A stretch of 40,133 bases of DNA from an uncultured Candidatus Saccharibacteria bacterium (GTDB lineage Bacteria; Patescibacteriota; Minisyncoccia; Phycocordibacterales; WO2-35-19), in contig CAZAXK010000004.1 of NCBI GenBank assembly GCA_964489135.1, forward strand, positions 1 to 40,133. The letters run 5' to 3'. The notes beneath the pieces were generated by a model that was given only the letters and a program-made list of their open reading frames with translations, did no database searches and had not been told where the DNA came from. Both the position numbers and the translations under genes were made by a program. The number at the start of each line of letters is the position of its first letter. The stretch's first letter is position 1. This document shows, piece after piece, positions 3,215-31,090 of the stretch.

Positions 3215-3248
3215 TGCGACAAATCTGACGGCCGTCAGATTTGTCGCA
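3215..3248. repeat. Perfect 34-bp palindrome, copy 2 (begins at the first base after the stop codon)
   Basis: TGCGACAAATCTGACGG|CCGTCAGATTTGTCGCA, exact reverse-complement symmetry. Confidence 0.95.
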
Positions 3249-3267
3249 AAATGATCAACATAAAAAA

Positions 3268-16205: not shown

Positions 16206-17429
16206 TCAATTATACCCCAAGTATTTTTCGAGTGCGAGAATAGCACTCTCGGCACTCTCCGCATTCATGAGCTCTTCTTTCAAATCGTGGACATCGGGTA
16301 GACCAGAAAGATAAGACTTGAAATGCTTCTTCATCACCGCAAAGCTTTTTACTTTACCGAGGTTTTGGTCAAAGAGTTTGATGTGGGCAAGAAGGGCCTT
16401 GAGTTTCAGTTGTGGATCGATATTATCCGACTTCGCTAAAAGCTTCGCCGGATGCTCAATTTGGCTACTCTGCTTTGCAGTGGCCAAATTGGCGAACAAA
16501 AAGGGGTTGCCAAATATCGCGCGGCCGAGCATCACCCCATCACAGCCAGTTGCTTCAGCTTTGGCATAGGCATCGGCCACACTGTCAACATCGCCATTGC
16601 CGAAGATCAAAGTAGCCCCTCCCCCTACCCCCTCCCCAAAAGGGAGGGTATTTCGAATCTCAACCGCTTCCTTGATCCTTTCCCACCGCGCCGGCACCTT
16701 GGACATCTCCTTGCGTGTGCGGGCATGGATGGTGATGACCGCTGGCTCTTCGGCCAAAAGCTCTGGTAACCACCCGCCCATAGTTCCATCTGGTCGGGCA
16801 GGCCCTTCTAGCTCATCTTTGTTGTAGCCAAGACGGGTTTTTACCGACACAGGTATCGCTTCTTTTCCCTGCTCCTTTGCATACTCTTCTACTCCCTCTT
16901 TGGCTGCACGTATCACTTCCCTTGCGAGCCGCGGATTTTTGATCATCGCCGCACCCGCGCCCTGCTTCTCGATACTTTTGTCCGGACAACCCATGTTGAT
17001 ATCGAGCCCATCGAACCCCAAGCTCGCGACGAGATACGCTGCCTTGCGCATATTCTCCGGTCGAGAACCGAAAAGCTGGGCCACGATCGGCCTCTCAATT
17101 TCGCTGTATTCCAAATCTTTGAGCAACTTTTTCTTGCCTTCCTCGTGCGCAAGCACCAACCCGTCGGCACTGACAAATTCCGTCCACGTGACATAACTAT
17201 TAATACGTTCTCGAGATACTTCTCCGAGCGGGCCTTGCGCAGGCCGACTGGGCCGAGCAGAGGAATTTTCTAGCAAGAAAATATCCGTGCCAAGCGAGGA
17301 GAACGTATCGAGAGAATTATTAGAGCAACTCGCGATGACACGCCTGAAGGCCGAGTCGGTAACGTCGGCCATCGGTGCAAGACAAAGTATCGGCTTTTCT
17401 ATTTTTGACCAAAATCCTAAATTAACCAT
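16206..17429 (-). CDS. dus: tRNA-dihydrouridine synthase (Dus family) carrying four repeat-derived insertions
   Basis: LAPMADVTD, TEFVSADGL, AQLFGS, DINMGCP, PVSVKTRLG, TIHART, GNGDV, DGVMLGRA, MKKHFKSY. Confidence 0.95.
   Translation of the reverse strand: MVNLGFWSKIEKPILCLAPMADVTDSAFRRVIASCSNNSLDTFSSLGTDIFLLENSSARPSRPAQGPLGEVSRERINSYVTWTEFVSADGLVLAHEEGKKKLLKDLEYSEIERPIVAQLFGSRPENMRKAAYLVASLGFDGLDINMGCPDKSIEKQGAGAAMIKNPRLAREVIRAAKEGVEEYAKEQGKEAIPVSVKTRLGYNKDELEGPARPDGTMGGWLPELLAEEPAVITIHARTRKEMSKVPARWERIKEAVEIRNTLPFGEGVGGGATLIFGNGDVDSVADAYAKAEATGCDGVMLGRAIFGNPFLFANLATAKQSSQIEHPAKLLAKSDNIDPQLKLKALLAHIKLFDQNLGKVKSFAVMKKHFKSYLSGLPDVHDLKEELMNAESAESAILALEKYLGYN
16425..16453. repeat. REP-like insert 4 in dus
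   Basis: Minus strand atccggcgaagcttttagcgaagtcggat (HPAKLLAKSD); resembles 13938-13965. Confidence 0.65.
16616..16648. repeat. REP-like insert 3 in dus (C-rich/G-rich hairpin type)
   Basis: cccctccccctaccccctccccaaaagggaggg (LPFGEGVGGG); resembles the dprA insert at 23332-23365. Confidence 0.7.
16773..16802. repeat. REP-like insert 2 in dus (30 bp)
   Basis: Minus strand cctgcccgaccagatggaactatgggcggg (PARPDGTMG); same ends as 13612-13646. Confidence 0.7.
17203..17308. mobile_element. MITE-like element insert 1 in dus
   Basis: 10-bp perfect inverted arms atacgttctc/gagaacgtat; 31-bp core 17260-17290 identical to 30823-30853. Confidence 0.75.
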
Positions 17430-22656: not shown

Positions 22657-23562
22657 ATGTCTTATAAAATAGAGACGCTAAATAAACCCGACTGGCCTCC
22701 TCTCCTCGCTCAAATACCTGATCCGCCAAAAAAGCTTTGCTTCGCGGGCCAAGTACCTGATTATGAAAGAAAATTTCTTTGCGTCGTCGGTTCGCGCAAA
22801 TATTCTGGCTATGGCAAAGAAGCCACGAGTGCGCTTATCGCCGACCTGCGTGGATTCCCCATAACGATCGTGTCTGGGCTCGCACTCGGCATCGACTCAA
22901 TCGCTCACCGTCTTGCGATACAAAACAACTTGCCTACGATCGCCGTGCCTGGGAGTGGGCTCTCACCAAACGTTCTCCACCCCGCAAGTCATGCACAACT
23001 CGCCGAAGAAATAGTCGAGAGCGGAGGCACTCTTCTCTCCGAATATGAGCCCGACTTCAAGGCGACCCAATGGAGCTTCCCTCAGCGCAACCGCATCATG
23101 GCCGGCATGTGCGACGCCACTCTTATAATAGAAGCTGAGCAAAAGTCGGGCACCATGATTACAGCCAAGCTCACCACCGAATACAACCGAGAATTGCTCT
23201 GCGTTCCCGGAAGCATATTCAACCCGATGTCGGAGGGGCCTAATATGTTCCTGCGACTCGGGGCGACATTGGTGCGAAGCGGAGATGATATTTTGGAAGC
23301 ATTGGGAGTGGGGAAATTGGATTTCCCCACAACCCCACCCCTTACCCCTCCCCAAAGGGGAGGGGCTCAAGCCACCCACACCGACTGTTCGGAGAAAGAA
23401 TTGCTAATCTTGCAATTGCTCGAGAGTCCAAAAGAAAAGAGCGAGTTGATAAGAGAAGCGAGCGCACAAAATCTTTCAATTTCCGAAATCCAGACCACCC
23501 TTACCCTCCTCGAACTCAAGGGGCATATCGAAGAAAAGCTTGGGCAGATACGACGCACATAA
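22657..23562 (+). CDS. dprA: DNA processing protein DprA
   Basis: VVGSRK, IVSGLALGIDSIAH, FPQRNRIMAG, SGTMITA, VPGSIF, C-terminal winged helix. Confidence 0.96.
   Translation: MSYKIETLNKPDWPPLLAQIPDPPKKLCFAGQVPDYERKFLCVVGSRKYSGYGKEATSALIADLRGFPITIVSGLALGIDSIAHRLAIQNNLPTIAVPGSGLSPNVLHPASHAQLAEEIVESGGTLLSEYEPDFKATQWSFPQRNRIMAGMCDATLIIEAEQKSGTMITAKLTTEYNRELLCVPGSIFNPMSEGPNMFLRLGATLVRSGDDILEALGVGKLDFPTTPPLTPPQRGGAQATHTDCSEKELLILQLLESPKEKSELIREASAQNLSISEIQTTLTLLELKGHIEEKLGQIRRT
23332..23365. repeat. REP-like hairpin inside the dprA linker
   Basis: cccctcccc-aaa-ggggagggg perfect 9-bp stem; encodes TPPLTPPQRGG. Confidence 0.7.
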
Positions 23563-29609: not shown

Positions 29610-30518
29610 ATGCAAAAACCTAAAATCATTGTAATACTAGGGCCGACATCTAGCGGTAAAAGCGACTTGGCGGTAAAGCTCGCTCAAAAGTTTAACGGGG
29701 AAGTAATATCCGCTGACTCTAGGCAAGTATACAAGGGTCTCAATATTGGCACGGGCAAGATCACCAAAAAGGAAATGAAGGGGGTGAAGCATCATCTGCT
29801 CGATATCGCGAACCCACGCAAAAAATTTACCGTTTCCGATTTTGTGAAAGCGACAAATTCGACGGTCGTCAAAATTGTCGCCAGAGGTAAAATACCTATT
29901 CTCTGCGGAGGTACTGCATTTTATATCGACGCTCTGCTCGGCGATAGGCAGATCCCCGAGGTTCCGATAAATGAAAAGTTGCGGGCAAAGCTTGAAAGGA
30001 AAAGTGTCGAGGAACTTTTCGCTATACTTTCTGACCTCGATCCAGAGAGAGCTAAAAGCATCGATAGGCAAAATCCTAGGCGATTGGTGCGAGCTATTGA
30101 AATATGCAAAGCACTAGGAAGTGTCCCAAAACAAATCGCAAGTTCACAATCAGACTTTCGAAACAAATTCGAAATTCTCAAAATCGGAACTAAAATCGAC
30201 GAGGCGGAATTAAGAAATCGGATTAACAAAAGATTAGAAAAGAGACTCAAACAAGGAATGATCGCCGAAGCCAAAGGGCTTCATGCGCGAGGACTCACCT
30301 ATAAACGGATGCGTGAGCTAGGACTAGAGTACGGGGCTCTGGCTGATCTGCTAGAAAACAAAATAACCAAAGAGGAGATGGTCGCAAGATTGCAGAAAGA
30401 GATCTGGCACTACGCCAAGCGCCAGATGACTTGGTGGAAAAAAGACCAAGAAATTCTCTGGATCAAACCATCCCCCACCATCGCTTCCCAAATAATTAAA
30501 GAGTTTTTGCGAAGCTAA
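29610..30518 (+). CDS. miaA: tRNA dimethylallyltransferase
   Basis: ILGPTSSGKS, ISADSRQVY, HHLLD, GGTAFY, RRLVRAIE, YAKRQMTW. Confidence 0.97.
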   Translation: MQKPKIIVILGPTSSGKSDLAVKLAQKFNGEVISADSRQVYKGLNIGTGKITKKEMKGVKHHLLDIANPRKKFTVSDFVKATNSTVVKIVARGKIPILCGGTAFYIDALLGDRQIPEVPINEKLRAKLERKSVEELFAILSDLDPERAKSIDRQNPRRLVRAIEICKALGSVPKQIASSQSDFRNKFEILKIGTKIDEAELRNRINKRLEKRLKQGMIAEAKGLHARGLTYKRMRELGLEYGALADLLENKITKEEMVARLQKEIWHYAKRQMTWWKKDQEILWIKPSPTIASQIIKEFLRS

Positions 30519-30523
30519 CGAGA

Positions 30524-30676
30524 GCGGGCCCACGAGGATTCGGTCACGCATAATTTTCTGCTGAAAATTTGCTCGACCCCGGCTCGGCCCGTCGGCCTCC
30601 GCCTTTCTCATCCTCGTCAAACCACGCAATGATGCTTCGCGCAAATAGCTATTCAAAGCTATTTTTGCGAATCATT
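30524..30676 (-). mobile_element. tRNA-3'-associated miniature element (Trp copy) ending in a 19-bp direct repeat of the tRNA 3' end
   Basis: gcgggcccacgaggattcg at 30524-30542 and 30677-30695; inverted atcctcgt at 30610-30617; GCT-TTGAAT-AGC hairpin; core related to 17260-17290. Confidence 0.75.
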
Positions 30677-30677
30677 G

Positions 30678-30748
30678 CGGGCCCACGAGGATTCGAACCC
30701 CGGTCGCTCCTTTTGGAGAGGAGAATTCTACCACTGAACTATAGGCCC
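30678..30748 (-). tRNA. tRNA-Trp(CCA)
   Basis: GGGCCTA/TGGGCCC acceptor, CTCCT-CTCCAAA-AGGAG anticodon arm, G73; lies downstream of rpmG as in many bacteria. Confidence 0.95.
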
Positions 30749-30766
30749 AATACGTAAAATATACAC

Positions 30767-30880
30767 AAAAAAAATAGAATTGTCCTGTAAGCGAGCCTTG
30801 CGAGACTCGACGGAGCGAGCACGAGGAATTTTCTAGCAAGAAAATATCCGTGCGAGCGACAGGATAATTCTATTTTTTTG
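30767..30880. mobile_element. MITE-like element between rpmG and tRNA-Trp
   Basis: 21-bp inverted arms aaaaaaatagaattgtcctgt/acaggataattctattttttt with one mismatch; core 30823-30853 identical to the dus insert. Confidence 0.75.
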
Positions 30881-31025
30881 CTTCCTTAAACACCACTCGC
30901 TTGCGGAGCTTTTTGGAATACTTCTTGAGCTCGATTTTGCGCTCTACTTTGCGCTTATTCTTGCGTGTAAAATACACCTCGCCGGTGCCTTTATGAACCA
31001 ATCTGATAAGTTGATCTTGGGACAT
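30870..31025 (-). CDS. rpmG: 50S ribosomal protein L33 (Cys-free type)
   Basis: MSQDQLIRL...GEVYFTRKNKRKVERKIELKKYSKKLRKRVVFKEAKK. Confidence 0.92.
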   Translation of the reverse strand: MSQDQLIRLVHKGTGEVYFTRKNKRKVERKIELKKYSKKLRKRVVFKEAKK

Positions 31026-31090
31026 GATTTTGAAATTAACCCCATATTTATAGCACACAAGCAAAAATGGTGCAATATCAAAAAAGTTAC

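Follow-up and report, generated by a model that had tools for sequence, protein, structure and literature searches.

A family of palindromic repeats with a conserved three-way-junction core and variable closing arms in Patescibacteria genomes

The window analysed here is a stretch of 40,133 nt from an uncultured Candidatus Saccharibacteria bacterium (contig CAZAXK010000004.1, positions 1 to 40,133 of the forward strand), and the element in question is a palindromic repeat of which this window holds three copies: one in frame within the gene for the tRNA-dihydrouridine synthase Dus, one between the stop codon of rpmG and a tRNA-Trp gene, and one diverged copy on the other side of that tRNA gene. 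An earlier note on this DNA had described a segment of 31 bp that is identical at the dus and rpmG sites, with similar sequence upstream, each copy being closed by arms unrelated to those of the other. Scanning the whole window, we found the 31-mer (GAGGAATTTTCTAGCAAGAAAATATCCGTGC) exactly twice, at 17260-17290 and 30823-30853, with no further site even at 3 or fewer mismatches and no match in shuffled windows (0/100). The likeness continues upstream of the 31-mer, so that the two copies agree over 64 nt at 78% (17227-17290 vs. 30790-30853), and both arm pairs were found as described. The features at these loci are listed below, with bit scores from a covariance model of the repeat (R1).

16206..17429, minus strand: open reading frame (ORF) of Dus, 407 aa, which hosts copy 1
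17203..17308, plus strand: copy 1 (the dus copy), whole hairpin, R1 66.6 bits
17203..17212, plus strand: 5' arm of copy 1, ATACGTTCTC, pairing with 17299-17308
17299..17308, plus strand: 3' arm of copy 1, GAGAACGTAT, pairing with 17203-17212
17234..17289, plus strand: 56-nt core of copy 1, with hairpin 2 at 17236-17259 and hairpin 1 at 17262-17286 (loop AGCA, bulged A)
30524..30542, minus strand: 19-nt duplicate of the tRNA-Trp 3' end (CGAATCCTCGTGGGCCCGC), 19/19 identical to 30677-30695
30532..30617, minus strand: copy 3, diverged and 'sister-type', 59 nt downstream of tRNA-Trp, R1 43.9 bits, E 3e-9
30677..30748, minus strand: tRNA-Trp (CCA), with copy 2 upstream and copy 3 downstream
30768..30879, plus strand: copy 2 (the rpmG copy), whole hairpin, lying between the stop codon of rpmG and tRNA-Trp, R1 73.5 bits
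30768..30788, plus strand: 5' arm of copy 2, the outer A-run/TAG matching host terminator-type flanks and the inner ATTGTCCTGT homologous to the arm at locus L126
30797..30852, plus strand: 56-nt core of copy 2, flanked by AAGCGAG (30789-30795) and CGAGCG (30853-30858)
30859..30879, plus strand: 3' arm of copy 2, whose outer 10 nt are, on the minus strand, the rpmG Lys-Lys-stop codons (AAA AAA TAG)
30870..31064, minus strand: ORF of rpmG (ribosomal protein L33), with its stop codon within the arm of copy 2

In folding, the dus and rpmG copies each close as a single multi-branch hairpin, with z-scores against shuffled sequence between -3.3 and -3.8 (dus) and of -7.1 (rpmG). On the minus strand copy 1 encodes ..DTFSSLGTDIFLLENSSARPSRPAQGPLGEVSRERI.. 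in frame in Dus and without a stop codon. The arms of copy 2 (30768-30788 and 30859-30879) are 21 nt long, AT-rich and 95% complementary; read on the gene strand, this hairpin has an AT-rich stem, measures 112 nt across and is followed by eight T residues (T8), the tRNA beginning 19 nt later. Many other copies of the family have no T-run. Hairpin 1 of copy 3 reads GCAAAUUUUC-AGCA-GAAAAUUAUGC.

A 25-mer from the core (GGAATTTTCTAGCAAGAAAATATCC) has at least 118 exact matches in species-representative genomes, nearly all of them metagenome-assembled genomes (MAGs) of Patescibacteria. Names among the matches listed are Paceibacterota, Yonath-, Vogel-, Taylor-, Nomura-, Zambryskii-, Morani- and Wildermuthbacteria, together with records titled Saccharibacteria, and most of the matches listed bear Parcubacteria-group names; outside Patescibacteria-type MAGs, the matches listed include a single short contig with the label Flavobacterium. 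When the copies are aligned on the 25-mer, a 56-nt core emerges that all have in common, (A)CTTGCGAG-NNNN-GAC(K)G-NNNN-GAGCACGA-GGAATTTTCTAGCAAGAAAATATCC-GTG, and the whole hairpin unit is about 100-125 nt long, non-coding and multi-copy. With R1, which was built from 99 copies, we identified 127 copies in 100 fetched loci, of which 25 lack the exact 25-mer and have a diverged centre. In the wastewater runs that hold the contig, assembler depth over the repeat cores at 30543-30589 and 30803-30864 is 10-20x that of the flank and contigs break there, indicating that very many more copies exist in that community, of the sister type especially. The dus region was matched in no RNA run.

A phage origin was considered and rejected, the 25-mer having no exact match in 2.9 million viral contigs. 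A search of the whole window with Rfam 15, the families of which include the hammerhead, twister, pistol and hatchet ribozymes, passed only four tRNAs at gathering thresholds, and permissive Rfam searches around copies 2 and 3 gave, besides the tRNA-Trp gene, chance-level matches only. A hammerhead ribozyme was likewise rejected, since comparison of the junction with the consensus by eye revealed no CUGANGA/GAAA arrangement on either strand. Our literature search found no such element described for Patescibacteria, and the family appears to have been undescribed so far.

The core is a three-way junction. Its hairpin 2 combines tandem G.A pairs with a 4-bp stem and a GAC(K)G loop, and its hairpin 1 consists of a 10-bp stem that carries a bulged A and an AGCA loop. 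In an alignment of 99 sequences, 86.9% of pair cells hold standard pairs (shuffles, 69.4%), and covariation scores 0.442 (shuffles, 0.137; slid controls, 0.125 or less). Covariation was detected at all pairs of the closing stem (12/12) and at all standard stem pairs of hairpin 2 (7/7), the upper 4-bp stem of which is 97% paired (4/4 pairs covarying), whereas one pair of the lower stem divides between U-A (60) and A-U (35). The tandem G.A pairs, which lie between both stems of hairpin 2, are Watson-Crick in one subfamily. As the seed set was built in a way that makes hairpin 1 invariant, its covariation was read from the diverged copies: there it covaries throughout (e.g., GGAAUUUCCU/AGGAAAUAUCC and GAGCAAUCCGCC-AGCA-GGCGGAUAUGC), the AGCA loop is mostly retained (AGUA in three copies and a UUCG loop in one), and most also keep the bulged A, which lies three pairs from the hairpin's base. 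Judged from these features, hairpin 1 looks like a protein-binding hairpin. The covariation also supports one of the two explanations put forward in the earlier note, namely that the arms are selected after insertion so that the insert folds as one hairpin. Arm mismatches on the window plus strand as displayed are G.T in 30 cases vs. A.C in 12, an excess suggesting that the displayed strand is the one that folds better when single-stranded, as RNA or as single-stranded DNA. At three loci (L055 3392-3501, minus strand; L063 3795-3910, plus strand; L050 5691-5798, plus strand), extra hairpins of 25-40 nt occur in the loop of hairpin 1 or between the hairpins, so the core tolerates nested insertions.

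Arm length was determined by anchored, gapped extension outward from the core, with arms taken from different copies as the control; whole-region RNA folding was rejected for locating the hairpin ends because it over-extends the hairpin. The median arm length is 22 nt (interquartile range 19-30 nt, maximum 64 nt), some arms extending to 47-64 nt. The median arm score is 14, compared to 1 for arms of different copies, and 77% of copies beat the 99th percentile of the mismatched-pair control. Across 111 copies, the arms carry 1.0-1.3 bits at positions 1-3 and 0.4-0.9 bits at positions 7-11, and beyond position ~11 only about 0.1-0.2 bits per position, with extremes of 0.02 and 0.3, while remaining 70-96% paired to position 18. 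The pattern of a fixed centre with site-specific arms, noted earlier for two copies, thus holds family-wide, the outer arms being little informative yet paired.

About three quarters of the copies are intergenic. At the forward-3' end of the hairpin, 38 copies have the stop codon of an inward-reading gene within 60 nt, of which 32 have it within 19 nt (32/38), compared to 17 such stop codons within 60 nt of the forward-5' end, of which only 4 lie within 10 nt (4/17). Gene starts are unbiased between the two hairpin ends (13 vs. 13). Most copies lie 2-19 nt behind a stop codon and antisense to that gene, and the clustering of stop codons at the forward-3' end means that the forward strand is usually antisense to the preceding gene, as it is at rpmG. 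At one locus (L085; 331-407, 2303-2381, 3914-3995 and 6310-6391), four copies fall within 8 kb and four consecutive genes, each just behind a minus-strand stop codon and antisense, and most of these genes are identifiable housekeeping genes.

In-frame copies within recognisable proteins number at least 17 and occur in both orientations. The proteins concerned are SecA, UvrB (at two different sites), Tgt, MetRS, RNase R, TsaD, Fmt, RNase HII, ComEC, UvrC, an S-adenosylmethionine (SAM) methyltransferase and Dus, hosts confirmed with Pfam and PDB and retaining their conserved domains. The encoded peptides read ..LRARR..EEFSSKKISV.. in one orientation and ..CTDIFLLENSSCSAQSASQG.. in the other, and among Dus orthologues the element peptide occurs at two different positions. 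Intron-like splitting of genes was rejected: five same-strand ORF pairs that flank copies are complete, separate genes, and hence neither gene splitting nor removal of the element by splicing is indicated.

Copy 3 differs from the other two in its use of tRNA sequence. Its 3' arm sits within the duplicated 19 nt of the tRNA-Trp end, and its 5' side resembles that end in inverted and degenerate form. The duplicate and its original (30524-30542 and 30677-30695) bracket a block of about 150 nt that holds copy 3 and is absent from three related loci (L120, L121 and L127). The layout recurs at L087 with that locus's own, different tRNA-Trp sequence, and at L058 an inverted tRNA-Arg 3' end lies beside a sister-type copy. 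The block of copy 3 looks, from its sequence, like an integration into a tRNA 3' end: as in integrative elements that target tRNA 3' ends and their non-autonomous derivatives, the insert is bracketed by the tRNA end and its duplicate as direct repeats. Unlike those elements, the block is too small for an integrase (none was found for copy 3, and the 134-nt insert contains no ORF) and carries an inverted tRNA end that pairs with the duplicate. Within the same inserted block, an imperfect hairpin of about 45 nt (ATGATTCGCAAAAATAGCT..AGCTATTTGCGCGAAGCATCAT) lies at 30630-30676 on the minus strand, between tRNA-Trp and copy 3. At L075 (3150-3370), direct repeats of about 40 nt (AAAAAAATTTTATATTTTATAACAAAGGGTAACTTTGGAGG) enclose a sister-type core, which makes for a flanking duplication of unusual length.

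The other explanation put forward in the earlier note was that the arms are made from target sequence during insertion. Only the core would then move, and inverted copying of the target flank would generate the arms, one of which would be old host DNA. The tRNA-Trp arms of copy 3 and L087 and the inverted tRNA-Arg end at L058 agree with this explanation, as do the outer 10 nt of one rpmG arm, which coincide with the Lys-Lys-stop codons of rpmG, and the occurrence of arms as long as 47-64 nt. The lengths of inserts in proteins, however, argue against it. Compared to a solved UvrB, the UvrB of L095 has 49 aa inserted against 1 residue, at least the full length of the hairpin, and in the methyltransferase of L117 a hairpin of 37 aa, with 27-nt arms, corresponds to a net insert of about 34 aa. 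Inserts 9-10 aa shorter would be expected in both proteins if one of the arms had been old host DNA; as the inserts match the whole hairpin, both arms are inserted DNA. Arms are, moreover, shared between loci, which the earlier note had itself named as an observation that would speak against its proposal: in the genome REEB237, identical 37-nt arms occur in three proteins, UvrB, Tgt and MetRS (L042, L061 and L099), a ATGTGTTTATGAATGC arm is common to ComEC (L089) and UvrB (L095), a ATAGTCYTTGAGAAGGA arm is common to eight loci, and one Yonathbacteria genome has three copies with shared arms. Arm types thus recur across loci and genomes, and the inner arm positions are conserved family-wide. 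The Dus insert, including its arm-encoded residues, is common to orthologues at ~60% identity, which is likewise difficult to reconcile with arms made at each target. We therefore consider target-made arms quite improbable, and for neither of the two copies for which they had been suggested does the suggestion hold.

Dus was rejected as an empty-site test because the insert is old and present in many orthologues, leaving no clean boundaries. At L119, where Dus is 93% identical, the same insert has two uncompensated changes in the 10-bp arms, indicating that the stem of the dus copy is not being maintained there.

The comparison of filled and empty sites that the earlier note had called for was made at rpmG. 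We fetched 15 relatives of the aminotransferase encoded beside rpmG and compared nine loci at the rpmG-to-tRNA-Trp spacer. One of these, L126, has a diverged copy in the same place and orientation as the window copy, with compensated changes in hairpin 1, and the arms of L126 and of the window copy are homologous (AAATAGCAAAATTGCCTGT/ACAGACAATTTCGCTATTT vs. AAAAAAATAGAATTATCCTGT/ACAGGACAATTCTATTTTTTT), a homology by descent that again is not expected of target-made arms. The spacer is empty at six sites (L120, L121, L123, L125, L127 and L128/129, the spacers of L128 and L129 being identical), each of which has an ordinary short terminator, e.g., AAAACTAGCC-caaagt-GGCTATTTTTG, followed by the same T-run and TAGTATT box; the terminator stems are only 5-7 bp long. 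Given these terminators, the filled sites appear to have ancestral A/T tracts and an ancestral outer TAG(C)/(G)CTA. The inner 11-12 bp of the rpmG arms, homologous in L126 and absent from the empty sites, arrived with the element, and host A/T tracts and the stop codon make up the outer part of the stem. Host sequence is thus part of the stem in two cases, the outer tracts at rpmG and the tRNA-derived arm of copy 3, and the interpretation given in the earlier note is, overall, partly supported.

The same sites bear on a second explanation, in which only a core of about 56-70 nt moves, inserting into the loops of pre-existing host hairpins, chiefly intrinsic terminators, so that the arms are host stems. 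Loop targeting is known from other systems: IS1397 targets hairpin loops in repetitive extragenic palindromic (REP) and bacterial interspersed mosaic element (BIME) units, ISKpn1 likewise targets hairpin loops, and class C group II introns land behind terminators. The present family resembles REP/BIME units, IS1397/ISKpn1 and class C introns in being tied to hairpins just downstream of genes, and the rpmG copy looks as if it were seated in the top of an ancestral terminator, an impression that comes from the empty sites. It differs from IS1397/ISKpn1 and class C introns, which encode their own enzymes, in being a non-coding insert of ~100 nt that brings along most of its own stem. REPs are simple stems of 20-40 nt with a conserved GTAG/CGTC end. 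A survey of REPs is available (PMC3733652). Insertion into terminator loops is consistent with the location of copies 2-19 nt behind stop codons, with the abundance in these genomes of long, perfect, A/T-flanked terminator hairpins (15-17 bp), and with the short terminator found at the exact element site in the empty spacers, flanked by the ancestral-looking tracts. Nevertheless, copies inside ORFs bring the whole hairpin with arms of ~25 nt, arms are common to unrelated loci, the inner rpmG arms shared by the window and L126 are missing from the empty sites, and the terminator stems at those sites measure only 5-7 bp. We consider it unlikely that the core alone moves into host loops.

A serious rival, although one that is compatible with mobility, is a host function at gene 3' ends. 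Taken as the main explanation, this would make the repeat a signal that serves the host (a terminator, a stabiliser, or a processing or binding site of a conserved Patescibacteria protein) and is selected locus by locus, with the copies inside genes as accidents. Covariation in all three helices and the conservation of a loop and a bulge such as protein-binding hairpins typically have would be expected of such a signal, as would the strong bias of position and orientation behind stop codons, the four consecutive genes of L085 that each have a copy, the structure kept between the window and L126, and the T-run that follows the rpmG hairpin on the gene strand. Against this role stand the usual antisense placement of the better-folding strand relative to the gene, the 17 or more in-frame copies found in essential proteins in both orientations, the lack of the element at the closest orthologous sites and the occurrence of identical copies in three proteins of one genome. 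We give a predominantly host-serving role a small chance of being correct.

The closest parallel is found in the Rickettsia palindromic elements (RPEs), reportedly described by Ogata et al. in 2000. RPEs are dispersed, non-coding hairpin repeats of ~100-150 nt that are intergenic or lie in frame in essential genes, where they add a short peptide without breaking the protein; we know of no established means by which they spread. The present family is similar in that a palindromic repeat lies in frame in genes that keep their conserved domains. It is unlike RPEs in its conserved three-way-junction centre with RNA-like covariation, in its hypervariable stem, in the presence of both orientations in genes (EEFSSKKISV or CTDIFLLENSS) and in its strong preference for positions behind stop codons. 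To our knowledge there is no sequence relation between the two, and their hosts differ (Rickettsia vs. Patescibacteria).

We favour, with moderate confidence, the reading that the repeats are an RPE-like, non-autonomous family of structured elements of Patescibacteria, mostly of Parcubacteria-type genomes, with arms that are borne by the element and a closing stem that need only pair. Being non-autonomous, such an element would be copied by machinery encoded elsewhere; we infer this mobility in trans, and the core may be the recognition module of a putative enzyme. The arms are part of the inserted DNA and would travel along with the element, and with pairing as the sole requirement on the closing stem they would drift quickly while retaining complementarity, so that unrelated copies end with unrelated arms. 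Complementarity could be kept by selection on the folded single strand or by template switching from arm to arm at quasipalindromes, a known replication error by which one arm of an imperfect inverted repeat is overwritten with a copy of its partner (PMC7202029, PMC8604942). Quasipalindrome template switching would keep drifting arms complementary and could extend them; it is a mutational process rather than an element family, and may or may not act here. Copies persist chiefly just after stop codons and antisense to the gene upstream; some would be seated in the top of an existing terminator hairpin, the A/T tracts of which then lengthen the stem, as at rpmG; and copies in genes would persist only where the frame stays open, as in dus. 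The difference between the dus and rpmG arms would then follow from the unconstrained stem of an element-borne hairpin, combined with the host A/T tracts that lengthen the stem at rpmG.

Several observations weigh against element-borne arms spread by an enzyme in trans. In the 20 ORFs that flank copies, Pfam searches detected no transposase, reverse transcriptase or integrase near the copies; these ORFs have housekeeping families only, two matching no family. No target-site duplication was found, the flanking direct repeats averaging 2.8 nt vs. 2.3 nt in controls, with a GAGCGA motif in one subfamily as the sole excess, and no filled and empty alleles were detected within the population in the contigs of four wastewater runs. 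Between the window and L126 the neighbouring protein has diverged to 64% identity, yet both copies retain the structure, which suits a host function no less than a selfish element. The strand on which G.T exceeds A.C is usually antisense to the neighbouring gene, and either strand may be the one that matters. In the ELA554 genome, six copies with identical cores have differing stem middles, for which simple recent copying is a poor explanation, and copy 3 and L087 take host tRNA sequence as an arm.

A more far-reaching version, which we consider speculative and rather unlikely, is that the three-way junction is the handle of a copying system (e.g., a reverse transcriptase or a single-stranded-DNA enzyme) that rebuilds or extends the stem from adjacent sequence. 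The tRNA arms of copy 3 and L087, the 19-nt and ~40-nt duplications (window and L075, respectively) and the presence of the same cores with different stem middles may point to such a system. If it exists, the family would be a self-templating hairpin replicator that recruits tRNA 3' ends, terminator stems and stop-codon flanks as arms, a bacterial counterpart of the spread of short interspersed nuclear elements (SINEs) in a mode undescribed for prokaryotic repeats.

[quoted passage not shown] Small size, lack of coding capacity and multiple copies (at least 118 loci; up to four copies in 8 kb) are features that the present family shares, whereas the same terminal inverted repeats are not present in all copies, only subfamilies sharing arms, and no target-site duplication of fixed length occurs. 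The label 'MITE-like' used previously is therefore acceptable only loosely, as the ends vary and the centre is conserved. Like bacterial MITEs and intergenic repeats (Correia/CREE, ERIC/IRU, BOX, RUP, Nezha), which are often co-transcribed at gene 3' ends, the repeats described here are small, multi-copy, non-autonomous and hairpin-folding; unlike in MITEs, the terminal parts are the least and the centre the most conserved, and there is no general duplication. An overview of such elements is available (PMC3184786).

Patescibacteria genomes are among the smallest and most streamlined, yet structured repeats are dense in them, some stretches having as many as one per gene, and are tolerated inside core proteins (SecA, UvrB, an aminoacyl-tRNA synthetase, Dus and others). 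A second lineage with in-frame palindromes in essential genes and a conserved three-way-junction core makes the family of greater interest than its two initial copies: it would be a second, independent case of the RPE puzzle, now with hundreds of sequences and clear covariation, and it points to a putative protein that reads the bulged AGCA hairpin. The repeats would also account for odd peptides (EEFSSKKISV, CTDIFLLENSS) and length variation in protein families of the candidate phyla radiation (CPR), and for contig breaks in CPR assemblies, and they could be used to mark gene 3' ends where terminators and RNA processing are unstudied.

Other repeats were also observed in the window. A G/C-rich palindromic repeat (CCCTCCCC..GGGGAGGG) is present twice, at 16617-16648 and 23333-23364; the first of these lies inside Dus and encodes LPFGEGVGGGA, where Dus orthologues have PSPLQGEGAGGEV. 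Similar hairpins were found in the rpmG-to-tRNA-Trp spacers of L120 and L128, and this palindrome looks like a second family of in-frame palindromic inserts, to judge by its sequence. Dus has a third in-frame insert at ~16330-16410 (residues ANLATAKQSSQIEHPAKLLAKSDNID), which only some orthologues share (P0002, P0008, P0010 and P0027, with the motif A(S/T)xxQSSQIEHP) and which is possibly another insert family. Finally, a near-perfect palindrome of 32 nt (GACAAATNTGACGGCCGTCANATTTGTCGCAA) occurs three times, at 2637-2668, 3218-3249 and 29852-29883, the third inside the miaA ORF, and could be an operator-like site or another repeat.

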